The notes below the pieces were generated by a model. The model searched no databases. It worked only from the letters and a program-made list of their open reading frames with translations, and was not told the origin of the DNA. A DNA stretch of 62,184 bases, counting the filler, from Deltaproteobacteria bacterium (GTDB lineage Bacteria; JAUYMQ01): NCBI GenBank assembly GCA_030698575.1. It is 8 parts of 8 records of this genome, joined end to end, with 100 filler letters (N's around TTAATTAATTAA, not from the genome) between each part and the next. Parts side by side here need not be neighbours in the genome. Positions count along the whole stretch, not along the records: positions 1 to 17,025 come from JAUYMQ010000435.1; 7 more parts are not named here. One strand, given 5' to 3'. This document shows, piece by piece, positions 1 to 17,125 of the stretch. A program made the translations under genes and the position numbers. Numbering within the stretch: position 1 is the stretch's first letter; each line of letters begins with the position of its first letter.

Positions 1-28
1 AGGAGTGGGGTACGGGTCATCTCGGGAG

Positions 29-964
29 TCAAGGTACCAACGAATATACCGGGGTCAAAGGGGGTCCGCCGCTCAGCACCGATTGCACGTTTGCGAGGGC
101 GATCGCGGCCATCTTGCGGCGCGTCTCCACCGTGGCGCTGCCGATGTGCGGCAGCAGCACCGTCCGCGGGGCTGCCAGGAGCCGCGGGTGAACCGCCGGC
201 TCCTCCATGTAGACGTCGAGGCCGGCGGCGCCGAGGGTGCCGGCCTCGAGGGCGGCGGCGAGCGACTCCTCGCGCACGAGATCCCCGCGGGAAGTGTTGA
301 TCAGGATCGCGCCGCGCTTCAGGCGAGCGAGCGTCTCGGGACCGATCACGCCCTTCGTATCCGGCGTCGACGGCGCGTGGAGGCTCAGCACGTCGCTCTC
401 GGCGAACAGCCGCGAGCGATCGACGCGCACGGCGCCGGTCTCGCGCTCGAACTCCGGCTTGGCGGTGCGCGCCGTGTAGACGATGCGCATGCCGAACGCC
501 AGCGCGCGGCGCCCCACCGCCTGGCCGATGCGCCCCGCTCCGAACAGTCCCAAGGTGCGCCCCCGCAGCTCCATGCCGAGCAGCTGCTCGGGATGCCAGC
601 CGGCCCAGGCGCCGGAGCGAACGAGGTCCACGCCTTCGACGAGACGACGGGCACAGGCCAGGATCAGCGCCCACGTGAGATCGGCCGTCGCCTCGGTGAG
701 CACGTCGGGCGTATTGGTGACGATCACCGTGCGCATCTCGGCCGCGACGAGGTCCACGTTGTCGTAGCCGACGGCGACATTCGCGACAATGCGCAGCTTG
801 GGCAGGTGCTTGAACTCCGTGCCCCCCACCCAGCGCGTGAGCAGCGGGACGAGGGCGACCCACTCGCCCTTGGGAGTCGGCGCGGTGGCGGGAATCCAGG
901 TGACGTCGAGACCTGCGAGCTGGGCGGGCTCCAGGAGCTGGCGGAGCTCTTCGGCCACCAACAC
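29..964 (-). CDS. D-2-hydroxyacid dehydrogenase (glyoxylate/D-glycerate reductase family)
   Basis: VGYDNVD, TNTPDVLTEATAD, Rossmann GxGRIG, INTSRG, GLDVY, LPHIGSAT motifs. Confidence 0.9.
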   Translation of the reverse strand: MLVAEELRQLLEPAQLAGLDVTWIPATAPTPKGEWVALVPLLTRWVGGTEFKHLPKLRIVANVAVGYDNVDLVAAEMRTVIVTNTPDVLTEATADLTWALILACARRLVEGVDLVRSGAWAGWHPEQLLGMELRGRTLGLFGAGRIGQAVGRRALAFGMRIVYTARTAKPEFERETGAVRVDRSRLFAESDVLSLHAPSTPDTKGVIGPETLARLKRGAILINTSRGDLVREESLAAALEAGTLGAAGLDVYMEEPAVHPRLLAAPRTVLLPHIGSATVETRRKMAAIALANVQSVLSGGPPLTPVYSLVP

Positions 965-972
965 GAGGTGCG

Positions 973-2862: not shown

Positions 2863-3698
2863 GGACGCCGGCCGCCCAGTCTCCGCAGCTCTACCTCAGA
2901 CACGATGAACCCAAATGCCGGCCAGCCGCCGGACCGCACCGAGCGCTCGAACCAGGTCCGCGCCCGCGCGGTATCGCCGCGCACCAGGTGCCAGTTCCCC
3001 ACCCCATACGCCAGCGTGGCGACGGCGATGTCGCCCGTGTCCGCCGGGGTGAGCACCGAGTCCGGCACGATCTCCCCACGATAGAGTCGCAGTCGCTGGA
3101 CGTAGGCGTTGGCGCCCGGGATCGAGTCGGGGCGGCCATCGAGCAGCGCCTGCGCGTCAGCTTTGCGCCCGGCGCGCGACAGCGACATCCACAGCCAATC
3201 GGTCGACGCGGCGCGCTCGCCCGAGTCCGGGGCGATCGGCAACGCGCGCGTGAACGCCTCGACGGCCGCGGCGAAATCACCCTTGGCGTGCCGCACGATG
3301 CCGAGGTGATACCAGATGCCGTAATTGGTGCTGTCGAGCTGGCGGCCGCGCGTCAGGTCGTCATGGGCCTGATCGAGCTCGCGCACCGAAAGGTGACGAT
3401 GCCCGCGCCAGCGATAGAGCAGCGCGTGCTGTGGCGCGAGCGCGAGTCCGCGAGTGAAGGTCGCGATGGCCTCGCGATACTGCCGGACGCCGGACTGGGC
3501 CACGCCGAGGGCGATGATCTTGTCCACGTTGCGCGGGTCGGCGGCGAGGGCGCTCTCGGCGCGCGCGACGGCGCCGCCCCCGGTGTCGCGCTGAGCGCGG
3601 TATTCGACGCCCGCAGGAGAGCGATACTGGACGGACTGGGCGAAGGCGGCCGCGGGAAGCAATGCCGCGAAGACGGAAACGGCGAGTCGTGTGGGCAT
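2859..3698 (-). CDS. secreted tetratricopeptide-repeat protein
   Basis: signal peptide ending AAFA-Q; TPR-like helices (YREAIATFTRGLALAP, WYHLGIVRHAKGDFAAAVEAF); overlaps ABC start. Confidence 0.75.
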   Translation of the reverse strand: MPTRLAVSVFAALLPAAAFAQSVQYRSPAGVEYRAQRDTGGGAVARAESALAADPRNVDKIIALGVAQSGVRQYREAIATFTRGLALAPQHALLYRWRGHRHLSVRELDQAHDDLTRGRQLDSTNYGIWYHLGIVRHAKGDFAAAVEAFTRALPIAPDSGERAASTDWLWMSLSRAGRKADAQALLDGRPDSIPGANAYVQRLRLYRGEIVPDSVLTPADTGDIAVATLAYGVGNWHLVRGDTARARTWFERSVRSGGWPAFGFIVSEVELRRLGGRRP

Positions 3699-3710
3699 GC
3701 GGAATTCTAT

Positions 3711-4475
3711 TTAGCGCACGGCGTCCTTCAACTGGTAGGCGATCCAGGCGCCGGCGGTGCCGAGGCTCGCGATCCCCAGGATGCCGAGGGCGAAGACCGG
3801 CGCCAGGCGGCGATCGAGCTCAGGGATCTCGTCCCGAGGGGCGGTACGAAGCAACAGGGCGTACGCCAGCAGGGCCAGGAGGGCTCCCGCGACGACGTCG
3901 AGAATGTAGTGCTGCTTGATGAACAGCGTGGACAGCCCCACCAGCGCCGCACAGACGAGCGCGATGATGCCGACCGTGCGATGCACCCGATAGGCGGCCA
4001 AAGCCCCCACACAGGAGTGCGCCACGTGGAGCGAAGGAAAGCAGTTGTACGGCGGATCGGCATCGTACAGAAACCGGAGGCTCCAGACCGCGAATCCCTC
4101 GCCGCTCAGCGTCTCGGGGCGCGGGGCGGCGGTCGGATAGAAGAAAAAGAAGACATAGGCGGTCGTCCAGACCAGCAGATACGCCAGCACGGTCCGGCGG
4201 AGGTGCTCCGGCGCACGGACGGTAAACACGGGCAGCAGAATCAAAAAGAGATACAGCGCTCCGTATATCAGTCCCCACACCGGCTGCAAGGGCAGCAACC
4301 GATCCCACGCCACTTCCGGGACGTAGACCGCCCGGCCGGTCGCGAACCCGGGGATGAATACGTAGACCGGCACCATCCCGACGAGGACGACCATCGGCAG
4401 GCTCACCCGGTACGGGCGCCTGAGCGACTGCACGACGAGCCTCCAGGTGGATGGCGCGGGGTCGGGCGGGCTCAA
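3711..4475 (-). CDS. PAP2 / inositol-phosphorylceramide-synthase-like membrane protein
   Basis: multiple TM segments; YNCFPSLHVAHS and KQHYILDV motifs. Confidence 0.8.
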   Translation of the reverse strand: MSPPDPAPSTWRLVVQSLRRPYRVSLPMVVLVGMVPVYVFIPGFATGRAVYVPEVAWDRLLPLQPVWGLIYGALYLFLILLPVFTVRAPEHLRRTVLAYLLVWTTAYVFFFFYPTAAPRPETLSGEGFAVWSLRFLYDADPPYNCFPSLHVAHSCVGALAAYRVHRTVGIIALVCAALVGLSTLFIKQHYILDVVAGALLALLAYALLLRTAPRDEIPELDRRLAPVFALGILGIASLGTAGAWIAYQLKDAVR

Positions 4476-4495
4476 CCGAGGGGCCGCTCGCTCGC

Positions 4496-6016
4496 TCAGG
4501 GGCGTTTGAATCGAATCGGCGGCAGCCGCACCCGCTCCGTCAGTCCCGAGTCGCCGCGCAGAAACGCCCGCATCGTCGCCAGAATCTCGGGCGACGAGAG
4601 CAACAGATCGTCGTCGTGCGAGCCGCCCTCAATGATGAGATGATGGCTGCTCGGGAACCCCGCGCGCACCTCCACCGCGTTGCTGGGCGGGGTGTGGATA
4701 TCGAGCGTCCCGCTGATGAACAGCACCGGCACGTCCGACGTGACGGGACTGCGGAAGGCATCGCCGAGATCCTCGACGGGCCACTCGGGGCACCGCGCCT
4801 CGAGGCCGAGGTTGCCGGCGTCACCCAGGATCGCCGTCCGTGCCTGCGACCGGATGAGGGCGCGGCGCTCGGCGGAGGCGCCGGAGCTGCAGTCCATGGC
4901 GATCGTCATCGCCAGCTCGCGGGTGCCGCGCCGCGCCCGGGCGACGAGCGGCGCGACCGCCGTCCAGTCGCCGCGCAGAATCGGAATGATACGGGCCGGA
5001 AACTCCGCGATGTCCTCACGCTCGCCGAGCTGGTTCAGGATCCCCCGGCGCAAGTCGTCGGCACCCACGACCACCCCCACCGTATCCCCCGTCTCGCGGT
5101 CCACGAAGGCGAGGCGTTCCGGCTCGGTCTCGAGACGGGCGAGCAGCCGCCGCAGATCGCCGGGCAAGTCGGGCACGGCCGCCCGCAGCGCAGGATCGGC
5201 CTGCATGGCGCTGTCCACGCGCAGAAGGATCCGGTCGAGGTTGGCGGGGAGCTTGTAGGTGTGATCGGGCCCTTCGATGCCCGCGAGGATCGCCGCGGCG
5301 GCCCGATCGGGGAACTGGCGCAGGTACGCCAGCGCCAGGTGCGTGCCGTAGCTGATGCCCCACAGGACTAGGCGCTCGGCGCCGAGGGCGACGCGCAGCG
5401 CGTCGAGGTCGGCCGCGCTTTCGCGCGTGGTGAATGCCTGGAGATCCACCGAGTCCGACCAATGCGCGGAGCAGGACTCGAGGAACGGGGTGATCGCCTG
5501 CCGGACGACGGATACGCCCGTCGGTTGATCGAGGGGGTGATCCCAGCTGTTTGGGCAGACGAGGTACGGACGGGTCAGGTACGCTCCGCGCTGGTCGAGG
5601 GCGATCACGTCGCCGTGGGCGCGCAGGGCTTGGAAGAGATCGTAGCGGTCTCCCGCCGAGGACAGCGTGCCGGAGCCGCCGGGGCCGCCGGCGAGGTACA
5701 CGATGGGGGGGCCAGGAGTTTCGCTCGTGCTCTTGAAACGGACGAAGTGGATCTCGATGGAATCGGCGCCGGGGGTCGCGTGGCGCATGGGGACCCGCAG
5801 GCGGCCCTCGTCTGCGTCGACAGTCCGCGGGCCGGGGATCAGCCGGCGCGGCGTGGGGATCATCCAGTACTCGGTCTCGGCAAACTCGATCGGTGAGAGT
5901 GTGAGGGCGCCCGTGGTGACCGACGGGCCGCGGGCTTCGCGGATGGGCCCGTCTCCCCAGCCGCAGGCCGTCATGGTCATGGCGAGCAGCATTGCGGAGC
6001 GACGTGTCAGTGCCAT
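4496..6016 (-). CDS. alpha/beta hydrolase lipoprotein (TAP-like peptidase)
   Basis: GGPGGSG, DQRG, nucleophile WGISYGT, SGTLDIHTP, GGSH; start reassigned to ATG 6016 (MALTRR...MTAC) because the longer ORF runs into an attC remnant. Confidence 0.8.
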   Translation of the reverse strand: MALTRRSAMLLAMTMTACGWGDGPIREARGPSVTTGALTLSPIEFAETEYWMIPTPRRLIPGPRTVDADEGRLRVPMRHATPGADSIEIHFVRFKSTSETPGPPIVYLAGGPGGSGTLSSAGDRYDLFQALRAHGDVIALDQRGAYLTRPYLVCPNSWDHPLDQPTGVSVVRQAITPFLESCSAHWSDSVDLQAFTTRESAADLDALRVALGAERLVLWGISYGTHLALAYLRQFPDRAAAAILAGIEGPDHTYKLPANLDRILLRVDSAMQADPALRAAVPDLPGDLRRLLARLETEPERLAFVDRETGDTVGVVVGADDLRRGILNQLGEREDIAEFPARIIPILRGDWTAVAPLVARARRGTRELAMTIAMDCSSGASAERRALIRSQARTAILGDAGNLGLEARCPEWPVEDLGDAFRSPVTSDVPVLFISGTLDIHTPPSNAVEVRAGFPSSHHLIIEGGSHDDDLLLSSPEILATMRAFLRGDSGLTERVRLPPIRFKRP

Positions 6017-6127
6017 GCCAGCCTCGGTCGTGGAGAGCGGACTCCGTTCGCTTGGGCGGGGAGCGGAGTCTGTCGTGTTGGACGGTGGTGAGTTGGAGAT
6101 GGTGGTAGGCTGGCCCGCCCGCGACCA

Positions 6128-6193
6128 CGGCGCGCTGAAGAACGATTCATTCCACAATCTACGCGCGCCGCCAGCTTCAAGCGCGTGTTAGGG
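6128..6193 (-). repeat. truncated attC site (R''/L'' half only)
   Basis: matches about two-thirds of the 90-bp array repeat (minus: CCCTAAC ACGCG CTTGAAGC...CAGCGCGCCG) but lacks the GCTTAAG...GTTAGGC half. Confidence 0.8.
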
Positions 6194-6427
6194 ACCGGCC
6201 GCACCAAGGCTTCCAGCCAAGATTAGCGTCGTGTAAAGACGAATTGAGCGAGGTGGAAGCGAGGTGGTGATCTGGATAATGTGACGCTTACCTGCCCGCG
6301 AGAGGAATCACTCTTTCGCATGTCGAACGTCAGGGCACAGGACGAAGGCTCATACTGCCAACGAGTCGGCACGCCAAGTCGCGGCGCGGATGTGTGAGAC
6401 ACACCGACGGAGCCGTCGGCGACTAAC

Positions 6428-6691
6428 GTGAATCCGTATGGATTGCGAGACTCGCCCTGGGCTTCCCAATCGCCAACGAGAGAATCGCTGGACGAGGGGC
6501 ACCAGGCCGTGGACCCCGGCGGCGCCGAACTGGACCTGGATGCGGGTTCCGCTGGGAGACGCGCCCTCGAGCCCGGCGTATTTGCGGAGGCATTGCTGCT
6601 CGACGGAGATGGGTGGAAGCTCTCGCTGCCGGCGGGCTGGCGCGTGGTGCGGGTGGGCGGGCGATTCGACCTGATGGCGCCACGCCCCTGA
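6428..6691 (+). pseudogene. probable C-terminal remnant of a hypothetical protein
   Basis: 3' part looks coding (DGDGWKLSLPAGWRVV) and converges on the serine hydrolase; no credible start or RBS. Confidence 0.3.
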
Positions 6692-6753
6692 ACGGGGGCA
6701 GATCAGGGCAGCATGCGCGATGCGCTCCTCCGACCCTGTTCAGGGCGGTACGA

Positions 6754-7821
6754 CTACGGAGTCGGCTCGAACACCGCGTGCAGGAGCTCGCGAGCCCGCG
6801 CGAGCGCGATGCGCTGTTCGAGGCCTCCGGTATTGGAGAGGATGACGACCGCCATCCGTGCGTTGAGATCCGCGAGCGCCACGGCTTCGCCGCCGGGACC
6901 GCTGCCGCCGGCGGTGAACACATCGCGACCACCGAGCAGTTGCCGCACGGCCCGCATCGGGACGAGCGTCTCCCCCAGCACCGCCATGTAGAACCGCGCG
7001 ACATCCTCCGCCGAGCCGATGTAACCGCCCCCACCCATCTTGCAGCTGTTGTCGAGCCTCGGCGTGCGGCGCAGCGCACCCGTACTGTCGACATCGTAGT
7101 GGCTCACGCGGTCCGTGCTGTCGGCCGGCGTGTCCCGCGCGGTGTGGATCATGCCGGCAGGCATCCGAAGTCGGGTCGCGAAAAGACTGTCGAACGACAT
7201 CCCGGCGGCGCGCTCCAGCACGGCGCTCGCAAGGACGAATCCCCACGTCGAGTACGACTCCTCCGAGCCAGGCGTGGCGACCAGCGAGTCCTCGACGAAG
7301 AGCGGGAGCGCCTCCGCGGCCCGCGCGCAGGCGACGCTCGACGAGGCCTCGACGGCATCCCGGTAGTGCCGCACGCCGGCGCGGTGGGCGAGGAGTTGCG
7401 TGAGCGTCACTCGGTCGTAGTGCGCCGGCAGGCTTGGCAGCACGTTCCTCACCGGATCGTTCAACCGGACCTCGCCGCGCGCCGCGGCCTGGAGCGCAAG
7501 CACCGCCGTCACGGGTTTCATCAAGCTGTACAGGCGGAAGCGCGCCGCCGGTGACACCGCCACCGTGCGTTCACGCGACGTGTGACCGAACCCCTCGGAC
7601 CACACGATCCTCCCGTCGATCGCCACGGCCACGGCAACCCCTGAGCCTCGCCGTACGAGGGGACGCACGATGTTCCGTCCGCGGACGATCGCCACGGCAT
7701 GTTCGGACGACACTACGCCAGGTGACTGGCCCGGGGAGGGAGCCGGCGCGCATCCCTGCGAGAACAGCGCGGCCGTGACCAGCAGGGGGAGGCGGGTTCT
7801 GCGAATCATGGAGCTGGTCAT
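6754..7821 (-). CDS. serine hydrolase, beta-lactamase class C / PBP family lipoprotein
   Basis: SxxK (YSLMK), LLAHRAG, YSTWGF; lipobox-like SQGC; start at MTSSMIRR. Confidence 0.82.
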   Translation of the reverse strand: MTSSMIRRTRLPLLVTAALFSQGCAPAPSPGQSPGVVSSEHAVAIVRGRNIVRPLVRRGSGVAVAVAIDGRIVWSEGFGHTSRERTVAVSPAARFRLYSLMKPVTAVLALQAAARGEVRLNDPVRNVLPSLPAHYDRVTLTQLLAHRAGVRHYRDAVEASSSVACARAAEALPLFVEDSLVATPGSEESYSTWGFVLASAVLERAAGMSFDSLFATRLRMPAGMIHTARDTPADSTDRVSHYDVDSTGALRRTPRLDNSCKMGGGGYIGSAEDVARFYMAVLGETLVPMRAVRQLLGGRDVFTAGGSGPGGEAVALADLNARMAVVILSNTGGLEQRIALARARELLHAVFEPTP

Positions 7822-7822
7822 C

Positions 7823-8458
7823 TCATGTCCCGAGCAGGAGGAAGAGCAACGAAAGCAGCAGCAGCGCGAGCGCACCGCGACGAAAGAGCTGATGGAGCCG
7901 GCGCATCGCACCCTCACCGAGCAGCACCGCGCTGCCATACGCGAGGGTCGGGTGTCGCCGCGTCCATCGCGCGCCGAACATCCACCATGCCGAGGCAACG
8001 ATCCCGGCGCCGCTCCACACCACCGCCCAGTACGCCGGCGTGCCGATCGACTCGGCCAGCCCGCGTTGCTCGAGATACGGCAGCGCGATCCCACCCGTGG
8101 CGAAGAGTGGCAGCACCGGCGCGAACGGCAGGAAGGCGAACAGGAGGATGGTGCCGAGTGTGAGCACCGAACCCACGAATCCCGCGGCGAGGTGAAGGGA
8201 CGGTTGTGACTGGGCCGCCGCCCCCGGAGGCGTGGCGGTCGCCGCCACCGCGATCGCTACGGGATGGCCCAGTCGCGCGATGAGGGCGTCCACGGAGAGC
8301 CCGGACCCGTCCGCTCGGCGTCCTTCGTCGGCGTACTCCTCGAGCCCCTCGATCACCTCGGACACGTCCGGTGCGTCCACCGCCGTGAGCGCCGCGTGAA
8401 CACGACGCAGGTAGTCCGCCCACCTCTCTTGCTCCTCGGGTGTCCACGAGTCCCTCAC
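7823..8458 (-). CDS. HAAS/DUF1700-like membrane protein (PadR partner)
   Basis: YLRRVHAAL...EVIEGLEEY...LGHPVAIA pattern followed by TM helices; GTGA overlap with the PadR stop. Confidence 0.7.
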   Translation of the reverse strand: MRDSWTPEEQERWADYLRRVHAALTAVDAPDVSEVIEGLEEYADEGRRADGSGLSVDALIARLGHPVAIAVAATATPPGAAAQSQPSLHLAAGFVGSVLTLGTILLFAFLPFAPVLPLFATGGIALPYLEQRGLAESIGTPAYWAVVWSGAGIVASAWWMFGARWTRRHPTLAYGSAVLLGEGAMRRLHQLFRRGALALLLLSLLFLLLGT

Positions 8459-8799
8459 GACCGCCTCCCGGCGATGCCATCCACGCTGGCGGCGAGCGCG
8501 CGCCAGAGCCGGTTCATCGAAGCGCACATCGCCTCGCCCTCCGCGCTGAGTGTGTAGTACTTCCGTGCCGGGCCCACGCGGGACTCCTCGAGAGTGGAGA
8601 TGAGCAGTCCCTCGCGTTTCAACCGTGCGAGCACGGGATACAGGGTCCCACCTCCCGCCTCGAGTCCGCCGACCTCGTCCAGCACGGCCGCGATCTCGTA
8701 GCCGTACATGCGACGACGCCGCAGGGTATTGACCACGCAGAGCTCGAGGAGCCCTTTCCGCGCCTGCGTCTCCCAGTTGGACAGAAAGGCGGTGGACAC
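8455..8799 (-). CDS. PadR-family transcriptional regulator
   Basis: RKGLLELCV, YGYEI, GTLYPVLARL, GPARKYYTLS motifs. Confidence 0.92.
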   Translation of the reverse strand: MSTAFLSNWETQARKGLLELCVVNTLRRRRMYGYEIAAVLDEVGGLEAGGGTLYPVLARLKREGLLISTLEESRVGPARKYYTLSAEGEAMCASMNRLWRALAASVDGIAGRRS

Positions 8800-8805
8800 G
8801 CGCGA

Positions 8806-8834
8806 AGTATTATGCTATACCAGCTAGCTGTCAA
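8806..8834 (-). promoter_or_regulatory. sigma70 promoter, probably leaderless, for padR operon
   Basis: minus strand TTGACA-17 nt-AATACT, followed 6 nt later by the GTG start. Confidence 0.6.
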
Positions 8835-8949
8835 TACCACCTTGCAGCCGACACGCCGTGCGGAACAGGTCGATCGGTGCAGGATGCGGTCGCGCGCGTG
8901 GGCGGCGATGGCGCGGCATGCCACACGCGCCCGTGGTTGCCGCGGCCCC

Positions 8950-9030
8950 TCAGGGCCGCATGCGCGATGCCGTCGTCCGGTCGATGTAGATGATCCCGTC
9001 GAACTCGAGCCGCATCCACCGCCAGCCGGT
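8950..9030 (-). pseudogene. C-terminal remnant resembling an erythromycin-esterase-family protein
   Basis: minus frame reads ...MRLEFDGIIYIDRTTASRMRP*; the 5' end runs into a broken attC. Confidence 0.35.
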
Positions 9031-9039
9031 CAGTGCGAC

Positions 9040-9107
9040 CCTTGGCTCGCGGCTGCGAAGCGGCCGCCATCCCCAGCTCGCTCGGCAGCTTCAACCCCAC
9101 GTTAGCC
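9040..9107 (-). repeat. truncated attC of the HNH-RecQ cassette (divergent type)
   Basis: minus GGCTAAC GTGGG GTTGAAGC; TAA of the RecQ gene lies in R''; GGCTGGCTAAC is complementary to GTTAGCCAGCC at the cassette start (10899-10889); the L'/R' half is missing. Confidence 0.7.
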
Positions 9108-10811
9108 AGCCGGCGCAACAAACTTTACCTTGAGTCCTGTCGATCCCCAAATGCGAGCAGCCCAACCGATGACGCTGTCGACTCGAACCTGGTCGCATTT
9201 GTCACAGCAGCCGTGCGCGCGCGCGATCTGATTGGAACGGGAGAAGAGCCACTCCACAATCCTGACGGCCAGCGTTTGTCGTCGCTGCGTCTGCTCCTCG
9301 CCAAAGTAGCGCACAATGGCTGCTCGAAAACAGACTTCTCGCGCGGTTGCTTGCGCCTGCATCTGGGTGATGCCGTCGTATTTTGCTTGGAGAGCAACGG
9401 TCTTTCCCGCCGGATCGAGATCAGATTTCTCGACCGTCAGGTCTGCCATAAATGTGAGCAACCCAGCGTCCTTAGGTCCCGTGAACAAGACTGCAACCGA
9501 CGGCGCGCCGTCTCGTCCTGCGCGCCCGAACTCCTGCAGGTAGTCCTCTACCGAGGCGGGGTGCTGCCAGTGAACTACCAAGCGCACATTCGGCAGATCG
9601 AGTCCCATTCCAAACGCGTTTGTGCAGATAACAACGCGCGCGGCGGGCTCAAGGCGGCCAGTAAAACGTCCGAGTACCATATCGCGATCATTGGCCGTGC
9701 CGAGTTTGGAGTGAAAGAATGGAACATCCAAACCCAAGGAGCGCAGGCCTTGTTGGAGTTTCTCTCCAATCTTGACGGTAGGCACGAACAGCATGGCGCG
9801 ACCGGGCGGCATGATGCCCAGAAGGGAAATGATCACTGAATACCGCTTCTCATCGGCCACGCCATCAAGGCGCGCGAGAGCAATGTTCGGGCGATTCACT
9901 CCGGTTACAACAACTCGGGCAGTCGGTATCCCGAGTGATTGCAGAATCCGCTTTTGGCTCTCAACTCCAGCAGTGGCAGTAAACGCCAGCAGCGGAGGGT
10001 CGCCGAGAGCAGTACGCACTGCGCGCAATCTGCCGTAGTTCGGGCGAAAGTCCCGTCCCCAACGATCGATACAGTGTGCTTCATCGACCACCAAGTAGCT
10101 CGGCCTAGCCCGCGTGATCTCCTCGACCTCGGCTGGACGTACCATCGCGGAATCGAACCGCTCCGGAGTGCAAAAAAGAAACTTGATCGCGTGATCCCGG
10201 AGAAGCGCGTACCTGATTTCCTTCTCCATGGGTCCGAGATCGCCGTTGATGAATGTTCCTGGGATCTTCCAGGAGTGGAGGTCAGCCACCTGTTGGCTCA
10301 TGAGAGCCTTCAGCGGCGATATGATGAATCCACATCCCCGACCCAGCAGGATCGGCACCTGAAAACAGAGCGATTTGCCCGATCCGGTCGCGCTCACCAG
10401 CAGCAGTGACTCCCCGCGGAGCGCTGCGAGCACGACCTCCAACTGAGGGGTGCGAAAGCGAGTCACGCCAAGCAAGCGCAAAGTCGCTCCCAGTGACTCG
10501 TCGAGACCTGTCAGGTCACCTCGACGATCCAGCCACTTTGCAAGTCGCAAACCCCAACGTTCGATCACCCTGCGAGCGAGCGTGCCCTGCAAGTTGGGAT
10601 GGCGCGCCGCATGGCAACCGTCGCACAGTGTGATCAGATTCGCTGGGTCATCCATGCCCCCAGCTGCACGCGGAACCAGATGGTGTACGTCCGCTTCACC
10701 TTCGGCGCAGAGCTCACCGCACTGCTTACAACGTCGGTTGTCACGAGCGAGAACAACGGCCCGCACCTCGTGCCAGTGCTGTGTACTCGCACCGGAGCGT
10801 GAAGGGCTCAA
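9102..10811 (-). CDS. HNH endonuclease-RecQ helicase fusion (gene cassette)
   Basis: N-term CKQC...VHHLVP...NLITLCDGCH; RecQ motifs TGSGKSLCFQ, SPLKALM, VDEAHC..WG.DFRP, TATA, TNAFGMGLD, QEFGRAGRDG; Zn module CFRAAIVRYFGE...CCDKC. Confidence 0.9.
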   Translation of the reverse strand: MSPSRSGASTQHWHEVRAVVLARDNRRCKQCGELCAEGEADVHHLVPRAAGGMDDPANLITLCDGCHAARHPNLQGTLARRVIERWGLRLAKWLDRRGDLTGLDESLGATLRLLGVTRFRTPQLEVVLAALRGESLLLVSATGSGKSLCFQVPILLGRGCGFIISPLKALMSQQVADLHSWKIPGTFINGDLGPMEKEIRYALLRDHAIKFLFCTPERFDSAMVRPAEVEEITRARPSYLVVDEAHCIDRWGRDFRPNYGRLRAVRTALGDPPLLAFTATAGVESQKRILQSLGIPTARVVVTGVNRPNIALARLDGVADEKRYSVIISLLGIMPPGRAMLFVPTVKIGEKLQQGLRSLGLDVPFFHSKLGTANDRDMVLGRFTGRLEPAARVVICTNAFGMGLDLPNVRLVVHWQHPASVEDYLQEFGRAGRDGAPSVAVLFTGPKDAGLLTFMADLTVEKSDLDPAGKTVALQAKYDGITQMQAQATAREVCFRAAIVRYFGEEQTQRRQTLAVRIVEWLFSRSNQIARAHGCCDKCDQVRVDSVIGWAARIWGSTGLKVKFVAPAG

Positions 10812-10892
10812 GGGCGCTTGAGGGTTGTGTGATCTGCGCAGCGAGGTAATGCCGCTCGTGAAGGGCTCAACCTACCAGCAACGCCCGTGGCT

Positions 10893-10982
10893 GGCTAACG
10901 GGGTGCGCTTAAGCTGCGGCGCGCTGAAGAAGAAGTCATTCCTTAATCTACGCGCGCCGTCAGCTTCAAGCGCGTGTTAGGC
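10893..10982 (-). repeat. attC site
   Basis: 90 bp, RYYTAAC...GTTAGCC; L'' CTTGAAGC vs L' GCTTAAG with an extrahelical base. Confidence 0.92.
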
Positions 10983-10984
10983 GG

Positions 10985-12069
10985 CGCGGATTCATATAGT
11001 AAGTGCAACACCGCCGCCGACGGAAACGGTGACCTGGCGATACGATAGGCAACCAACTCCGCCAAGAGAAGGAAGCCTACCAATGCTGTACCGCCAGATC
11101 ACCTTCGAGGAAAGGTACACCGTGGGGCTGTTGCGGCAGCAGGGTCTCTCCCCCGCCGCCATCGCTCGCACGCTCGGCCGCCACCGCAGCACGATCGGCC
11201 GCGAGGTGCGGCGCAATCGAGCCCACAGTGATGGGACCTACCGGCCCCCGCTCGCCGACTGGTACGCCCGCGGTCGGCGTTCGCGCTCCCGGCGCAATCG
11301 GCAGTTCTCGCCTGAGGAGTGGACGCAGATCCAGGAGCTGCTGCGCGAGGATTGGAGCCCTGAGCAAGTAGCCGGGTGGCTGCGCCGCCACCGCGTGCTG
11401 CGGGTCAGCCACGAGACGATCTATCGCTACATCTGGGCCGAGAAGCGCGCCGGCGGCACGCTCTACCGGCATCTGCGCGGCGCACGCAAGCAGCGCCGCA
11501 AACGCTATGGCCGCTACGACAGCCGCGGCCGCCTGGCCGGCAAGCGCCCGATCACCACGCGGCCCGCGGCGGTCGAGACCCGGCGCGAGCTCGGACATTG
11601 GGAAGGCGACACGATGCTCGGCGCGAGCCAGGCCGGCCCGTGTGTGCTGAGTCTCGTTGAGCGGAAGACCGGCTACTTGCTGCTCGGCCAGTTAGACCAA
11701 CACACCAGCGCGGCGGTGAATCAGCGCGCGCAGCGATTGATTGCTGCGCAGTCCCACCCGGTGCGGACCATCACCGTGGACAACGGCACCGAGTTTCACG
11801 AGTACGCCGCGCTCGAGCGAGCAACCGGGACAGCGTTCTACTTCGCCACGCCGCATCACGCCTGGGAACACGGCACTAACGAAAACACCAATGGCCTGGT
11901 GCGGCAGTACCTACCCAAGCGCCAGAGTATGGCCCACCTCACCCAACACGATTGCAATCGGATCGCTGCGAAACTGAATCGCCGACCACGGAAGCGACTC
12001 AGCTACCGCACACCGGAGGAATGCTATGCGGGATAACGCTCAGTGTTGCACTTCAAAGTTGATATCAGA
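10985..12069 (+). mobile_element. IS30-family insertion sequence
   Basis: imperfect terminal IRs with core AAGTGCAACAC (11001-11011) / GTGTTGCACTT (12043-12053); probable 3-bp CGG target duplication; exact ends inferred. Confidence 0.85.
11083..12036 (+). CDS. IS30-family DDE transposase
   Basis: HTH (IARTLGRHRSTIGREVRRN), WSPEQ, SHETIY, GHWEGDT, TVDNGTEF, GTNENTNGLVRQYLPK. Confidence 0.95.
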   Translation: MLYRQITFEERYTVGLLRQQGLSPAAIARTLGRHRSTIGREVRRNRAHSDGTYRPPLADWYARGRRSRSRRNRQFSPEEWTQIQELLREDWSPEQVAGWLRRHRVLRVSHETIYRYIWAEKRAGGTLYRHLRGARKQRRKRYGRYDSRGRLAGKRPITTRPAAVETRRELGHWEGDTMLGASQAGPCVLSLVERKTGYLLLGQLDQHTSAAVNQRAQRLIAAQSHPVRTITVDNGTEFHEYAALERATGTAFYFATPHHAWEHGTNENTNGLVRQYLPKRQSMAHLTQHDCNRIAAKLNRRPRKRLSYRTPEECYAG

Positions 12070-12077
12070 CGGCACGA

Positions 12078-12716
12078 TTACGGCGCTGCCTTGAGTTCAC
12101 GACAAGAACCTTTCGCGACGTAGCCTGAGACATCCCGCACATTAGGCAGCGGGGCCGGACGGTCGCGCGCCCGCAAGGTATCCGACACGACGTCAATCAC
12201 ATGCACTTTCGAGAGCCAGGTGGAACCATCCCGCTCGGTCGCGAACCACACGATACCAACAGTCATGTTGGTGAGACACGTTCCAACAAAGACGCGCGCA
12301 CGAACGATCGGAATAGTGTCCTCGAGATCAGAAGAGTAGCCGATACCTGGTGTGGCATATGGCTTCTGGGTTGGATAATAGACCGGCCCATCGGCGGGCG
12401 ACTGAATGTAGATCAGGGGGACCGCATCACACTCGACGCACCCTATGCCCTCGAGTACGAAGAATGGCGGCTTGTTGGAACGGGGCAGGATATCTAGGAC
12501 ACGGACGTGGTAGAGACCAGTGGCGAAGCGTGTGCCATTGGCGAGAACGAGAGTGTCTTGAGCCGTCGCCAGGCCATTGGGTAGTCTCGGTGCAACGACT
12601 GAAAGAACTCGCCAGTGGCGTAGAGTCGTTGAATCCGATGGGGATTGCGCGGCGGCGGACGCGACGAAAACTGCAGCAAGTAACGTAACCATTTCACCGC
12701 GAAAGGACGTCCTCAT
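12078..12716 (-). CDS. secreted hypothetical protein (gene cassette)
   Basis: signal peptide ending SAAA-Q; CxxC (GCVEC); fills the cassette between attC sites. Confidence 0.7.
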   Translation of the reverse strand: MRTSFRGEMVTLLAAVFVASAAAQSPSDSTTLRHWRVLSVVAPRLPNGLATAQDTLVLANGTRFATGLYHVRVLDILPRSNKPPFFVLEGIGCVECDAVPLIYIQSPADGPVYYPTQKPYATPGIGYSSDLEDTIPIVRARVFVGTCLTNMTVGIVWFATERDGSTWLSKVHVIDVVSDTLRARDRPAPLPNVRDVSGYVAKGSCRELKAAP

Positions 12717-12727
12717 CTTTGTGTGCC

Positions 12728-12817
12728 GCCTAACGGATCGCGCTTAAGCTGCGGCGCGCTAAAGAAAGATTCATTCCTTAATCTACGCGCGCCGGCAGCT
12801 TCAAGCGCTTGTTAGGC
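12728..12817 (-). repeat. attC site
   Basis: GCCTAAC...GTTAGGC, 90 bp, near-identical to the other array repeats. Confidence 0.93.
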
Positions 12818-12823
12818 GGCAGG

Positions 12824-13492
12824 CTATTTGAAGCGTGGTCGCCAAAGACCATGGCCGCCGCGACGTTTCTCGTCTGCCTCGAGCCCGCTGTCGAGATACC
12901 ACAGGAGCATATAGGCGCCATCTCCCGCGCGCGTTGCGTCGGCATACGCAACCTCGCCCTTTTGATAGTGACCCTCGATGAGATTCATCAACCAGCGCAG
13001 TGACGCGAGTGCCTCTTCCACTTTTGCCCGACTTGCTGGCTCCAGCGGACGCGCTGATGGAGTGGCAGCATGCTCCAGGTCGCGGTGCGCATAAAGGCGG
13101 TGCCGCCAGTCTCGAGCAAACCGGGTCTTGTCCTCGAAATCATCCAGCCCGCGATTCAGCTCACCTCGAAGACCGCCTACGACTAGGGGCGTCAGGCCAC
13201 GGACCGAAACATTGCGCTGGCCCCCGGTTCCAGGCGGGTCAGAGAGGCGGCTCAGGTGAAGGAGTACATCCTGCCACAACACTCGTTCCAGGTTCGAGAA
13301 GAACTCGGGCGCCGTTTTATTCATTAAGGCGATTCGTGATTCGCTCGTCGCGAATAGTTCTCGGAACTCCTGCCACTTGAGGTGCAGCCAGGCCACATCG
13401 TGCCAGAGGAGGAAGTGCAGCTCACCAAGCTCCAGACCCATCGCGGCGATCTTGGCAGCGCGGACTTCCTCTTGAGTGCTAGATGTTGCCAT
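12824..13492 (-). CDS. HEPN AbiU2-like protein (gene cassette)
   Basis: helical protein with LLHLSRLSD...NVSV and RDWRHRLYAHRD (Rx4-6H HEPN motif). Confidence 0.7.
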   Translation of the reverse strand: MATSSTQEEVRAAKIAAMGLELGELHFLLWHDVAWLHLKWQEFRELFATSESRIALMNKTAPEFFSNLERVLWQDVLLHLSRLSDPPGTGGQRNVSVRGLTPLVVGGLRGELNRGLDDFEDKTRFARDWRHRLYAHRDLEHAATPSARPLEPASRAKVEEALASLRWLMNLIEGHYQKGEVAYADATRAGDGAYMLLWYLDSGLEADEKRRGGHGLWRPRFK

Positions 13493-13506
13493 GGGGCTGA
13501 GCTGCC

Positions 13507-13596
13507 GCCTAACGGATCGCGCTTAAGCTGCGGCGCGCTGACGAAAGACTCATTCCACAATCTACGCGCGCCGCCAGCTTCAAGCGCTTGTTAGGC
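13507..13596 (-). repeat. attC site
   Basis: GCCTAAC...GTTAGGC, 90 bp. Confidence 0.93.
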
Positions 13597-13719
13597 GGCG
13601 CGCCAGAGTCGCTTGACGGGGGCTTGACGCTTGTCGGGCACTCTACTGGCATTCGAAACGCGAGCGCTTGATGGCGTGGCGTAGGAGGACGTTCGCCACA
13701 GTGGCTGACAGGAGGCGTT

Positions 13720-13929
13720 ATGCGAAAGCTCAAATGGCTTAGCCTGCTGTTTCCCCTGCTATGCGCTGGAGCTCTCCCGGCGATCACAGCCGGGTGTGAC
13801 GGGTTTGGACTCACCGAACCGGCGTGCCGGAAAGTAGGACAGGAGTGTGGCACCTTTGTGGGATCTTGCTGTGACGGCCCGCATTGGTGCAGGGACACGG
13901 TGAGCGGTCTGGTCTGTCAGGGGCCGTAA
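13720..13929 (+). CDS. small secreted/lipoprotein cysteine-rich (knottin-like) peptide in inverted cassette
   Basis: RBS AGGAGG just upstream of ATG; signal peptide with TAGC lipobox; C-x6-C-x6-CC-x5-C-x8-C. Confidence 0.7.
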   Translation: MRKLKWLSLLFPLLCAGALPAITAGCDGFGLTEPACRKVGQECGTFVGSCCDGPHWCRDTVSGLVCQGP

Positions 13930-13971
13930 ACGTGATGGAAGCTGCCTGCGTTTTAAGTCGGTTTACGCGCC

Positions 13972-14061
13972 GCCTAACGGATCGCGCTTAAGCTGCGGCG
14001 CGCTAAAGAAAGATTCATTCCACAATCTACGCGCGCCGCCAGCTTCAAGCGCTTGTTAGGC
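13972..14061 (-). repeat. attC site
   Basis: GCCTAAC...GTTAGGC, 90 bp. Confidence 0.93.
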
Positions 14062-14085
14062 GGCGCGGACACCGAGGCGAGTCCT

Positions 14086-14547
14086 CTATAGCTGGGAGCG
14101 ATGTTCGTAACGGAAGAGTCGTCCAGCATACACAGGGCGCTCCAGCAGCACTGAGTCTCGTGAGAAAACGCCAAACTCCGGCAACGGACAGAGAGCGTTC
14201 GGAGGACACGTGAAATGTCCGATCATGAGGCTATCTGCGCGCACGCGATACCCTGAACGATGTGTCACGGTTTGCGCCGCAACCCCGATGATGTCAAGAC
14301 TGTCGCGCCGCCAACTGAATACGCGCGTCGCCGCCCCCTGGCCATCAAACCCGATGGTCTCAGATAGCAACCATAGTGTCTGTCCATTCTCGCTCCAGAG
14401 TAGTACAGGCAGTGGCTGCGCGTCGACGCTTGTGAGCGCATATGAGCCCTGCAGCTCGGATTCCGGCCCTAAGGTCGTTTCCCCACAGGCAGCCAGCACC
14501 AACGTGGTCATGAGCATCGATCGAGCACGAACGGAGGTGTAGGCCAT
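14086..14547 (-). CDS. lipoprotein, lipocalin-like beta protein (gene cassette)
   Basis: lipobox LAAC; GSYALTSVDAQPLP; RBS GAGG upstream. Confidence 0.72.
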   Translation of the reverse strand: MAYTSVRARSMLMTTLVLAACGETTLGPESELQGSYALTSVDAQPLPVLLWSENGQTLWLLSETIGFDGQGAATRVFSWRRDSLDIIGVAAQTVTHRSGYRVRADSLMIGHFTCPPNALCPLPEFGVFSRDSVLLERPVYAGRLFRYEHRSQL

Positions 14548-14573
14548 GGCTTACCTCACTTTGTTTGCGTGCC

Positions 14574-14663
14574 GCCTAACGGATCGCGCTTAAGCTGCGG
14601 CGCGCTGAAGAAAGATTCATTCCTTAATCTACGCGCGCCGCCAGCTTCAAGCGCTTGTTAGGC
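14574..14663 (-). repeat. attC site
   Basis: GCCTAAC...GTTAGGC, 90 bp. Confidence 0.93.
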
Positions 14664-14670
14664 GGCGGAC

Positions 14671-14940
14671 TCAAGAACCGGAAGCCTGCGCGAAGCTGCG
14701 AATCATCCACCCGAGCGCGACGATCGCTAGGATGAGGACGATGCGAACCCAGGTTAGGAGACCTTGGCCGCCCTCATCATAAGTATCGCGAGATAGGAAC
14801 TCGGTGATGGGTGCTGGTGCGGCGAAAATGCCGTCCCCGTTTTGCCGATCTCGCCGAAATGCGCTCAGGCGCAAGAGCGAGATGATGTAGACAAGACTGA
14901 GGCCGAAGGCAACGTAGAACGCCTGCGGGACATCTTGCAT
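14671..14940 (-). CDS. small two-TM membrane protein (gene cassette)
   Basis: MQDVPQAF... with two hydrophobic helices; the upstream ORF extension lies inside the attC and is spurious. Confidence 0.65.
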   Translation of the reverse strand: MQDVPQAFYVAFGLSLVYIISLLRLSAFRRDRQNGDGIFAAPAPITEFLSRDTYDEGGQGLLTWVRIVLILAIVALGWMIRSFAQASGS

Positions 14941-14964
14941 GTCGAACCCTCGGTCGAATCCGCC

Positions 14965-15057
14965 GCCTAACGGATCGCGCTTAAGCTGCGGCGCGCTGAA
15001 GAAAAAGTCGTCATTCAATATCCTGTGCGCGCCGCCAGCTTCAAGCGCTTGTTAGGC
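14965..15057 (-). repeat. attC site (93 bp, variant loop)
   Basis: same arms as the other copies; central loop differs (AAAAAGTCGTCATTCAATATCCTG). Confidence 0.92.
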
Positions 15058-15082
15058 GGCACCATACCCACCGGAATACCTC

Positions 15083-16042
15083 CTAGCGTCGGAACCAGGG
15101 CTGAAGGTCGACGCCGGTGTGTTCGTACGCTCGTGAAAGCAGCTCCTCTGTGTTCAGCCTGCGATCCACCTGCCACACCGCGCGAAACCACGCTCGCATC
15201 CGGTCCAGCCCGGCAGTCTTCTCCAGCATCTCGAACAAGGCCAGCGATGCGCCGTAACGTGCGAGCGCGTTCGATTCGTCACTGATCATATCACCAGAGC
15301 CGAACCGGAAGGGTCCCGGAGGCGAGTAACTCGGATCGGTCTCCATTCGCGCGCGTTGCTCGGGTGTGACCTGTCGCAGAATGGCCTCTCGCTTCACGGT
15401 GACACCTCCCCATCCAGAGAGGTTGAGCGGTTCGCTCAGCGACTCATAGGCGTTCCTGAGTTCGGTACGCCTCTCCTGCGCCAGAACCGGTGCTCTACGT
15501 TGCGTCACATGCAGGCCGGCCCATTCGGCCATACCTTCGGCGAACCAACGAGGCGGCTCGGAGCCGAGCGTACTTTGGATTGCGTGTACCTGCTCGTGGG
15601 GGAGCGTCTGGTACAAGTCCCTCTCCCCCACAGGACCGAGGTGCCGAGACGGATCAACAAGAACATTCCAGCGCACCTCGCCGCTGCGGCGCGGCGGAAC
15701 GTAGCCGGAGTCCTGAACGAACGCGACAGCGGACCAATCAACCAAGCCAGGATCGACAGCCACCAACATGGCGGCTTCGCGACACAGGGCAGCGATCGTC
15801 GGAATGTACGTTCGGGCAACGTGCTCTACCGCGGCATCGTAATAAGCCCGGAATACGAGTCCGGTGGCGAGATCAACTGCACGGAGCACCGGAAGGTCCT
15901 CCGGCTGAGGACGGAGCTGAGCAATCTTCAGCGACGCCCGCTGTTCCTGTACGAGGGCGGCACGCCCGGAAGCACAAGCCGCAACAAGAGTCGACCCAAG
16001 CTGGACGGCCAGGCTCAGGCCCACCGCCGTGGATCTTGTCAT
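15083..16042 (-). CDS. gluzincin/peptidase MA-like lipoprotein (gene cassette)
   Basis: lipobox VAAC; HEQVH and PRWFAEGMAEW motifs. Confidence 0.75.
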   Translation of the reverse strand: MTRSTAVGLSLAVQLGSTLVAACASGRAALVQEQRASLKIAQLRPQPEDLPVLRAVDLATGLVFRAYYDAAVEHVARTYIPTIAALCREAAMLVAVDPGLVDWSAVAFVQDSGYVPPRRSGEVRWNVLVDPSRHLGPVGERDLYQTLPHEQVHAIQSTLGSEPPRWFAEGMAEWAGLHVTQRRAPVLAQERRTELRNAYESLSEPLNLSGWGGVTVKREAILRQVTPEQRARMETDPSYSPPGPFRFGSGDMISDESNALARYGASLALFEMLEKTAGLDRMRAWFRAVWQVDRRLNTEELLSRAYEHTGVDLQPWFRR

Positions 16043-16081
16043 CTGGTACGTCCCAGCTAAGGGGCCATGGTGTTGTGTGCC

Positions 16082-16171
16082 GCCTAACGGAGTGCGCTTA
16101 AGCTGCGGCGCGCTGAAAAAAGATTCATTCCTTAATCTACGCGCGCCGTCAGCTTCAAGCGCTGGTTAGAC
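16082..16171 (-). repeat. attC site
   Basis: 90 bp; R'' GTCTAAC contains the stop of the DUF2238 gene and is complementary to that cassette's GTTAGAC start. Confidence 0.93.
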
Positions 16172-16795
16172 AGCGGCGACACCCTCGGGCTGGCCCAGCA
16201 GTCTCCTCAGGGCGCGGTCATGCACTTTGCTGAGCACGAGCTGCGCGGTAATCGCCCCGATCAACGCGAGGAACATATCCCATTGCGTGTCCCACACGTC
16301 GCCTTGCGTCCCAAGGAAGGCCTCGGCGCTCTCCCCGCCGGCCAGCGCGGACCACCACTCGATGAATTCGTAACACGCACTGAAGGCCAAACACACTGCC
16401 GTGACGAGCACGAACAGCCAGCGGCCAGGGCGGAGCGGCGAGGTCCGTACGAGAATCTCGCGTACGAGCATGGCCGGGATGAAACCCTGGGCAAAGTGCC
16501 CCAGGCGATCATAATGGTTCCGTGCAAAGCCGAAGAGGTCCTGGGCCCAGAACCCGAGCGGCACGCGGGCGTACGTGTAATGCCCGCCTACCATGAGGAT
16601 GAGCGCATGGACCGCCAATAGCGTGTACAAAAGGGGGGTGAGAGGAAAGCGGCGATAGATGGCCACCAGGATCGGGGCCCCGATCAGGATGGGAAAGATC
16701 TCCAGCCACCACGTGGTACGGTCGTACGGCGCGAGTCCCGACAGCGCGAGCGCGACCGCGATCAGGATGAGTAGAGTGAGGGGATAGTGCTTCAT
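16166..16795 (-). CDS. DUF2238 (YjdF-like) membrane protein (gene cassette)
   Basis: GGHYTYARVPLG, RNHYDRLGHFAQG, YEFIEWW, FLGTQGDVWDTQWDM. Confidence 0.88.
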   Translation of the reverse strand: MKHYPLTLLILIAVALALSGLAPYDRTTWWLEIFPILIGAPILVAIYRRFPLTPLLYTLLAVHALILMVGGHYTYARVPLGFWAQDLFGFARNHYDRLGHFAQGFIPAMLVREILVRTSPLRPGRWLFVLVTAVCLAFSACYEFIEWWSALAGGESAEAFLGTQGDVWDTQWDMFLALIGAITAQLVLSKVHDRALRRLLGQPEGVAAV

Positions 16796-16839
16796 CGAAG
16801 ACCCCGTCAGTCGGGGGACAGGACCGGTTCGTAGCCGCT

Positions 16840-16929
16840 GTCTAACGGATCGCGCTTAAGCTGCGGCGCGCTAAAGAAAGATTCATTCCACAATCTACGC
16901 GCGCCGCCAGCTTCAAGCGCTTGTTAGGC
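16840..16929 (-). repeat. attC site
   Basis: 90 bp repeat copy; the next cassette is cut by the contig end at 17025. Confidence 0.92.
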
Positions 16930-17025
16930 GGCAGATTGCGCCGATACGTGTCATGGCCCCTGCTCCAGCACGATCCGTGCTGGAATCTGGGTCGTGTCGC
17001 CATAGGTGAACCTAGTCACGTGCGG

Positions 17026-17125
17026 NNNNNNNNNNNNNNNNNNNNNNNNNNNNNNNNNNNNNNNNNNNNTTAATTAATTAANNNNNNNNNNNNNNNNNNN
17101 NNNNNNNNNNNNNNNNNNNNNNNNN
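17026..17125. other. artificial contig linker; the same linker occurs at 25914-26013, 29313-29412, 34787-34886, 49259-49358, 52169-52268 and 57677-57776
   Basis: N runs flanking TTAATTAATTAA (stops in all six frames), 100 bp each. Confidence 0.98.

Follow-up and report, generated by a model that had tools for sequence, protein, structure and literature searches.

The great majority of known inhibitor cystine knot (ICK) peptides, or knottins, come from animals, plants and fungi, and these peptides are prized as scaffolds for drugs and imaging. Here we describe a gene for a small, probably knottin-like bacterial protein, an open reading frame (ORF) at 13720-13929 on the plus strand of the window, by which we mean the whole stretch of 62,184 nucleotides (nt) analyzed, joined from parts of eight records of the Deltaproteobacteria bacterium assembly GCA_030698575.1. 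The gene lies in an integron cassette and is read against the other genes of the array. In the explanation that we favor, with some reserve, a reversed gene within a normally oriented cassette gives rise to a lipid-tethered, disulfide-rich, knottin-like binder of the envelope, whose role is likely protective.

The arthropod ICK toxins, among them the remipede double-ICK Xt3a (7rz3), agelenin (2e2s), J-atracotoxin (1dl0) and the Toxin_7 family (PF05980), share with the encoded protein and its 20 homologues (hereafter the family) the C-C-CC-C-C order of cysteines and the x6/x6 first loops. Also common to both are the motif C-x2-G-x2-C...CC-x-G-L-x-C, a precursor with a signal peptide, and a predicted compact fold with a C-terminal beta-hairpin. 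Unlike these toxins, the family is bacterial and acidic, has its lipobox Cys immediately behind the signal, no propeptide intervening, and, in the case of the window gene, is borne by a cassette. Another parallel is given by small protective envelope lipoproteins, such as the receptor blocker Llp of phage T5 and the lysozyme inhibitors MliC/PliC. The logic proposed here for the family, that of a tiny lipid-tethered and disulfide-stabilized shield, is shared with them as an analogy of mechanism only.

Non-toxin knottins, including sponge asteropsins (2n3p, 2lzy), plant Ep-AMP1 (2mfs), gurmarin (1c4e) and inhibitors of alpha-amylase and proteases (1clv, 2mm6), are similar to the family in size and predicted fold, and act as stable binders or enzyme inhibitors and not as pore blockers; they are eukaryotic, soluble and secreted, unlike the predicted tethered family. 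Sponge knottins are described as inhibitors of a bacterial sialidase (PMC13418204). With regard to bacteria, the KNOTTIN database update states that knottin sequences occur in them and refers to "bacterial knottins" without experimental structure (PMC5753296). Bacterial knottins as such are therefore no new idea, and the rarity in bacteria asserted by a sequence-only reading of this DNA, made before the present analysis, was overstated. Like the family, those entries are predicted bacterial ICK sequences; the parts of that source considered here speak neither of a lipobox nor of an integron setting. A phrase search for bacterial knottins returned only this update, and none of the top 20 results of a broader literature search dealt with a bacterial family. 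Pfam, NCBIfam, PHROGs and PADLOC offer no name for the family. A lipobox-anchored family with venom-like motifs appears to be undescribed, its integron and reverse-strand setting being known from the window gene. With respect to that setting, parDE toxin-antitoxin cassettes of the Vibrio cholerae superintegron are reported to have their own promoter and an orientation opposite to the array (10.1101/2023.11.21.568050). The orientation is the same here and a promoter is presumed; unlike the parDE pair, the present cassette encodes a single exported mini-protein.

The gene and the parts of its product are the following:

13720-13929, plus strand: gene for the 69-amino-acid (aa) precursor, with ATG at 13720 and TAA ending at 13929, supported by the ORF, 20 homologues and the best codon frame
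13720-13794, plus strand: signal peptide, residues 1-25 (MRKLK, hydrophobic core, I-T-A-G), the most conserved part of the family
13795-13797, plus strand: codon of Cys26, the proposed lipidated +1 residue, Cys in 21/21 rows of the family alignment
13825-13917, plus strand: six-Cys core and predicted ICK-like domain, C36-x6-C43-x6-C50C51-x5-C57-x8-C66
13710-13715, plus strand: Shine-Dalgarno-like AGGAGG, 4 nt before the ATG
13613-13618 and 13624-13629, plus strand: two TTGACG hexamers
13597-13719, plus strand: 123-nt spacer between the ATG and the attC of the cassette itself, the sole stretch in which a private promoter could lie
13509-13898, minus strand: antisense ORF of 129 aa, rejected as a shadow ORF

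The ORF, the AGGAGG, both TTGACG hexamers, the TAGC and the cysteine spacing pointed out in the sequence-only reading are all present in the DNA at these places.

The ORF at 13720-13929 is a real gene. A search with phmmer of 1.84 billion representatives gave 12 matches at E<=1e-3, 11 of which are true small relatives of 60-98 aa; the twelfth, P0010 (566 aa), whose alignment spans no more than 17 signal-like residues in a repeat, was dropped from all alignments. By a profile search, 19 matches were obtained among 5.8 billion clusters, and the union of both searches amounts to 20 homologues of 60-132 aa with identities of 32-70%, in which the Cys framework is kept together with the start, the signal and the lipobox Cys. 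Every one of them originates from a metagenome or assembly source and bears either no name or "hypothetical protein"; a Pfam domain is on record for none. In the alignment of 21 rows, L13, C26, C36, C43, C50 and C51 are invariant, C57 is present in 20 rows and C66 in 19, and exactly six cysteines follow C26 in 18 rows. The check for relatives conserving the framework, suggested by the earlier reading, was thus borne out. Mean pairwise identity is 53% in the signal region versus 33% at mature non-Cys positions, and the loop lengths across the family are x6, x6, x0, x3-5 and x3-11.

It is extremely improbable, in our judgment, that the frame is a silent passenger or a spurious ORF, not expressed in this organism, with the cassette stored, inactive or decaying. 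Such a reading draws on the antisense position with respect to the array, the lack of a promoter match, an apparent absence from the annotation and a codon score of only -0.065; against it stand the homologues of the same length class, the intact frame and the strong Shine-Dalgarno sequence. With respect to codon usage, the plus frame ranks best of six, though weakly, and the score can only rank frames because its training set is contaminated by shadow frames; guanine-cytosine content by codon position was uninformative for this ORF. Furthermore, a 151-nt soil metagenome contig covers 13686-13836 with two differences, 13740 T>C and 13806 T>C, both at synonymous third positions (2/2), a small sample in which the same two sites are also third positions of the antisense frame. 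That antisense frame of 129 aa runs about 90 nt into the attC, has no Pfam match, is the worst of the six codon frames (-0.32) and is absent from the protein collection. The plus ORF had been called the only credible one; a second open frame does exist, and it was judged to be a shadow. The exact 69-aa protein was absent from a collection of 15 billion proteins where two neighbors on the same contig, the AbiU2 and DUF2238 proteins, are present with NCBI as source, so the gene was apparently missed by the deposited annotation. The expectation that gene callers would overlook it holds on this contig and fails for the homologues, which were called hypothetical proteins by JGI, ENA and others.

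In contrast to the abundant attC type, the family is rare, with 20 clusters among billions of proteins. No family member turned up in 185,579 species genomes searched by two pattern scans or in a scan of viral contigs, all these scans being of limited sensitivity, and no match was found in the two other genomes of the phylum (3 in the set), which are 72% and 90% complete. A 13-residue pattern match on a Meiothermus contig was treated as chance; the sole locus from a metagenome scan with a 5-row alignment lies in an alternative frame of a contig resembling anelloviruses and was likewise discarded as chance. Scoring 8,000 candidates of 232-2000 aa brought up no fused or longer form, a result of little weight as evidence. 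In the ESM Atlas, the nearest clusters scored 0.85, below the lead threshold, and are unnamed bacterial proteins of 62-68 aa; the mature part alone gave no usable match. It was also observed that P0004, P0006, P0013, P0016 and P0017 have in common a Pro/Gly/Ala-rich tail in their C-terminal 25-35 residues, after the last Cys (RNGAS...RA.PATPGGG...). This tail could be a propeptide, a linker or a read-through into the conserved attC.

As regards the fold, the cysteines follow the C-C-CC-C-C order with the short loops of ICK peptides. The AlphaFold model of the mature part, built from the 21-row alignment, has a predicted local distance difference test score (pLDDT) of 76.8, with 80-87 over its residues 11-44, and contains a C-terminal beta-hairpin (residues 56-60 and 63-67). 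When this model was compared with the PDB by Foldseek, 44 matches were obtained at E<=10, and about 36 of the 43 rows listed are ICK peptides, as judged in part from entry titles, with template modeling scores up to 0.71 and root-mean-square deviations of 1.6-3.3 A over about 34 residues. A structural alignment to all 48,161 representative chains, run with no prefilter, gave 52 chains with Z>=2. The first 11 rows were all ICK peptides, with near end-to-end cover at 1.5-2.6 A; the top match was agelenin (33/35 residues, 1.8 A, Z 3.8), and asteropsin G was matched over 32/32 residues at 1.5 A. Most of the 38 matches in a further structure-match list are ICK peptides as well. At the sequence level, the family profile gave 37 matches at E<=10 against PDB chains, 34 of them ICK. 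The best was the remipede toxin Xt3a (E 0.01), to which Cys I-V align gap-free with the G/GL positions in register. In addition, 12/21 members weakly match Pfam Toxin_7 (best E 4e-4).

From these models and alignments, the mature part probably has a knottin-like fold, outside every curated venom family, and its disulfides would be paired I-IV, II-V and III-VI. The earlier proposal of a knottin is supported in the framework and in a set of fold and weak sequence matches that are almost only ICK, although none of the fold matches is statistically significant. Another possibility is a disulfide-rich lipoprotein or exported protein that is not knotted, in which the same six cysteines adopt another connectivity or an unthreaded fold of the colipase/Dickkopf or IGFBP-N type; the protein would then be an ordinary envelope protein and its likeness to toxins convergent. 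Weak match statistics, the presence of IGFBP, Dickkopf, colipase and Bv8 chains among the matches, and the loss of one Cys tolerated in 3/21 members speak for it. We consider it doubtful, given that the top of the unbiased structural search is made up of ICK peptides alone, that the loop lengths lie within or near the ranges usual for ICK peptides, and that five cysteines align without gaps to a solved ICK toxin.

The N-terminus of the precursor reads MRKLKW, followed by a hydrophobic core and by I-T-A-G-C26, and residues 3-17 are helical in the full-length model. Every family member has a basic N-terminus, a hydrophobic core, small residues and the invariant Cys. Residue -1 is Gly in 13 rows and Ala in 8 (21/21 G/A), residue -2 is small, and 20/21 rows fit a broad PROSITE-style lipobox pattern. 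Seven cysteines follow the hydrophobic core, an odd number. Lipidation of C26 would explain both this odd count and the invariance of C26; if the precursor were cut at that site by signal peptidase I, seven cysteines would be left and the invariance of C26 would have no obvious reason. The genome also contains genes for the processing enzymes: Lgt (214 bits) and LspA (143 bits) are adjacent on contig C380, and DsbB (39 bits) is on C576, all above their cut-offs, while VKOR was not found in this genome, which is 91.6% complete. Judging from the sequence, the candidate is likely a lipoprotein.

This bears directly on the possibility of a free secreted knottin, a toxin or bacteriocin from which signal peptidase I, cutting after T-A-G, would release a 44-aa peptide directed at competitors, at protist or invertebrate grazers or at ion channels. 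Small residues such as T (-3) and G (-1) suit that peptidase, the cysteine framework, the CxxGxxC...CCxGLxC motif and the predicted fold are like those of arthropod venom ICK toxins, and a conserved signal joined to variable mature loops is typical of venom peptide families. Nevertheless, Cys26 is invariant (21/21) exactly at +1 of a lipobox-like motif and the free peptide would hold seven cysteines, the cassette has a single gene with no immunity, export or maturation gene, and the mature parts are acidic or neutral, unlike most antimicrobial and channel-blocking peptides. For the 20 rows computed (P0001 on a truncated part), their net charge ranges from 0 to -7, which argues against a cationic antimicrobial or pore-blocking peptide. 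For these reasons we regard a free toxin as unlikely. The invariant Cys26, the odd cysteine count and the presence of Lgt, LspA and DsbB favor a tethered lipoprotein. The earlier description of the protein as secreted is accordingly probably wrong, since the invariant lipobox Cys points to attachment to the membrane.

The cassette and the sites that bound it are located as follows:

13504-13599, plus strand as bottom strand: attC hairpin of the cassette itself, core 13507-13596 (GCCTAAC...GTTAGGC)
13969-14064, same orientation as all others: attC of the neighboring cassette (upstream in the minus sense), core 13972-14061
13513-13977, sense minus: gene cassette of 465 bp, placed from the attC positions and a crossover in the AAC of R'

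Contiguity with the gene extends over 1-17025 (contig C50), so that arguments from the neighborhood end at 17025. Within this contig, eight near-identical repeats of 90-93 nt extend from 10893 to 16929, with GCCTAAC-like start boxes and GTTAGGC-like end boxes. The motif count was 7-8 versus 0-0.5 expected, and the repeats, folded as single-stranded DNA, form long imperfect hairpins (z -5.2 to -6.6). The repeats are attC sites and the DNA between them represents integron cassettes; the unique DNA between the two 90-nt repeats around the gene is exactly 13597-13971. According to a published account, the bottom, recombined strand of attC has RYYYAAC (R') at its 5' end and extrahelical bases near L'' in the 3' arm, and in a correctly oriented cassette the gene is on the attC top strand (PMC5027507). 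The plus strand of every attC in this array has two one-base bulges in its 3' arm, as is also seen in the cassette's own attC (DNA fold -35.6 kcal/mol, z -6.3); thus, plus is the bottom strand and the cassettes are read on minus. In agreement with this geometry, the six other cassette genes of the array are all on the minus strand, including the Pfam-supported genes DUF2238 (16166-16795) and AbiU2/HEPN (12824-13492). The same attC type is accompanied on contigs C364 and C308 by four further genes, and these too are all minus.

The candidate gene is on the bottom strand of attC, being the sole exception among 11 cassette genes and opposite to 10/10 others beside this attC type, just as the sequence-only reading had noted of its neighbors. 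Its coding strand is consequently not the attC top strand, which is the one expressible from Pc. As both flanking attC sites are in the standard orientation, the gene alone is reversed inside a normally oriented cassette, and the term inverted cassette used previously does not apply. On the same grounds, an insertion of the whole cassette upside down by top-strand recombination was rejected.

Because the gene faces against the array, its transcription would have to start at a promoter of its own in the 123-nt upstream spacer. The leader is of that length, versus 11-44 nt for the six forward cassette genes. It contains a second AGGAGG at 13683-13688, and AGGAGG(A)CGTT occurs twice in it (13683-13694 and 13710-13719, 27 nt apart) with a start codon after the second only. 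An Rfam search over attC and spacer gave Ysr276 as its sole match, with 25.6 bits versus a cut-off of 100, which was treated as chance.

Taken together, we propose that the precursor, made of a Sec-type signal peptide, the lipobox-like I-T-A-G-C26 and an acidic six-Cys domain of 43 aa, would be processed by Lgt and LspA, and that the acylated Cys26 would tether the domain to the membrane on the extracytoplasmic side. The Dsb system would then form the three disulfides of an ICK (knottin)-like fold. The outcome would be a small and very stable binding module tethered at the surface or in the periplasm, with a fixed scaffold and fast-changing loops. It could bind or block a protein outside the cytoplasm, for example an incoming hydrolase or toxin, or a receptor exploited by phages, and thereby protect its producer. 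A protective role on the envelope is favored by the tether on the producer, the charge, the variable loops, the AbiU2/HEPN neighbor and the anti-phage cassettes found elsewhere; it has been reported that cassettes of sedentary integrons often encode anti-phage systems (10.1101/2024.07.02.601686). We put forward the function of a protective binder or inhibitor tentatively, as a possibility that falls short of probable and that we nevertheless place ahead of a released toxin.

Several results weigh against this explanation. Regarding expression, a sigma-70 scan of 13597-13719 called no promoter. Both TTGACG hexamers are there as reported, without an acceptable -10 partner; the best one after the second hexamer, by eye, is TGGCAT (3/6), and the earlier claim of expression from an own promoter was not sustained. 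No RNA runs were listed with the locus, and the metagenome contigs that matched it are all DNA. As to export, residue -3 is Thr in 15/21 rows, so that the TAGC lipobox described before is kept in its +1 Cys and departs from the classical Leu at -3, and signal peptidase I could also cut after T-A-G. With regard to the fold, one Cys is missing from three homologues, AlphaFold gave a mediocre model of the full-length protein (pLDDT 64.9), and the ICK fold of the mature model may have been reproduced by AlphaFold from the cysteine pattern alone. The combined check by AlphaFold and Foldseek that had been suggested gave matches dominated by ICK peptides, none of them at E<=1e-3 and with E at least 0.7. 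In the structural alignment Z was at most 3.8, where according to the tool's own warning a Z under 8 can be a common arrangement; since a Z above 8 is hardly reachable for a 34-residue domain, the composition of the match list is the main signal. All Pfam ICK families (Toxin_7 PF05980, Toxin_12 PF07740, Conotoxin PF02950) gave 11-16 bits versus cut-offs near 27. In particular, the members listed scored 11.3-15.7 bits with Toxin_7 versus 27, and the window protein 11.6 bits with Conotoxin versus 25.1. The conotoxin framework that had been invoked is therefore recognizable as a resemblance in cysteine pattern, while the Conotoxin matches themselves (E 0.12-0.59) are far below the cut-off. Finally, PHROGs, NCBIfam and PADLOC gave no match at E below 0.1, so these collections provide no link to defense.

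Another aspect to mention is the kinship with venom ICK peptides, for which we cannot tell homology from convergence on the present sequences. We consider it very unlikely that the family and the venom ICK peptides of arthropods and remipedes are truly related by descent, the bacterial form being a lipid-anchored surface module shuttled by integrons among soil and groundwater bacteria. If such a kinship were true, the family would be a hypervariable shield or weapon against phages, grazers or competitors, and might be a donor or a recipient in horizontal transfer between animals and bacteria. If the knottin-like lipoprotein itself is borne out, it would offer an easy experimental entry to prokaryotic knottins, made naturally in the oxidizing periplasm, as well as a natural format for surface display on a mobile cassette of 465 bp. 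It would furthermore be a concrete case of function hidden in the mostly unannotated pool of environmental cassettes. The locus also indicates that a cassette gene can be genuine despite lying on the "wrong" strand, and that annotation can overlook it. Should the fold or the expression fail, the protein would be one more small hypothetical lipoprotein.

The source genome is a metagenome-assembled one, of an uncultivated soil or groundwater bacterium, with 653 contigs, 4.13 Mb and 91.6% completeness. Paired 44-nt runs of N occur in the window at 17026, 25914, 29313, 34787, 49259, 52169 and 57677. In three metagenome runs (one groundwater, two soil), the attC flanks of the cassette (13560-13607 and 13960-14010) were found in hundreds of contigs continuing into many unrelated sequences, which indicates that this attC type serves a large and varied environmental cassette pool. 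An integron integrase was found on a separate short contig of the same assembly, C206, with these features:

992-1984 of C206, minus strand: integron integrase (TIGR02249), 451 bits versus a cut-off of 265
112-801 of C206, minus strand: cassette-like gene of 229 aa, following the integrase gene on the same strand
about 65-132 of C206: shorter, related attC-like hairpin, after the 229-aa gene

The integrase seems to be co-oriented with the cassettes, because the cassette-like gene and the attC trail the integrase gene on the same strand. A co-oriented layout matches the arrangement described as "inverted integron-integrase" (PMC4889954). By its orientation, the integrase gene also points to minus as the sense strand of the cassettes. 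At its right end, the array contig may adjoin C206.

The AbiU2-type HEPN protein of the adjoining cassette (12824-13492, minus strand; Pfam E 2.7e-21) is a candidate abortive-infection or defense protein, and near-identical copies of it are present on other metagenome contigs. Small proteins with lipobox-like N-termini are encoded in two more cassettes, at 14086-14547 (minus strand; LAAC) and at 413-844 of C364 (minus strand; GAGAC), with only weak mutual similarity (30.6% over 49 aa, pairwise E 0.004). It seems that this cassette pool often encodes exported and lipoprotein-type products. An IS30-type transposase gene (HTH_38 and rve; 11029-12036, plus strand) is located within the cassette that is bounded by the attC sites at 10893 and 12728, so that 1,095 nt separate the gene at 12078-12716 from its attC. 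Directly past the last attC (10893), a gene for an HNH-DEAD/RecQ-like helicase of 569 aa is located at 9102-10811 on the minus strand.

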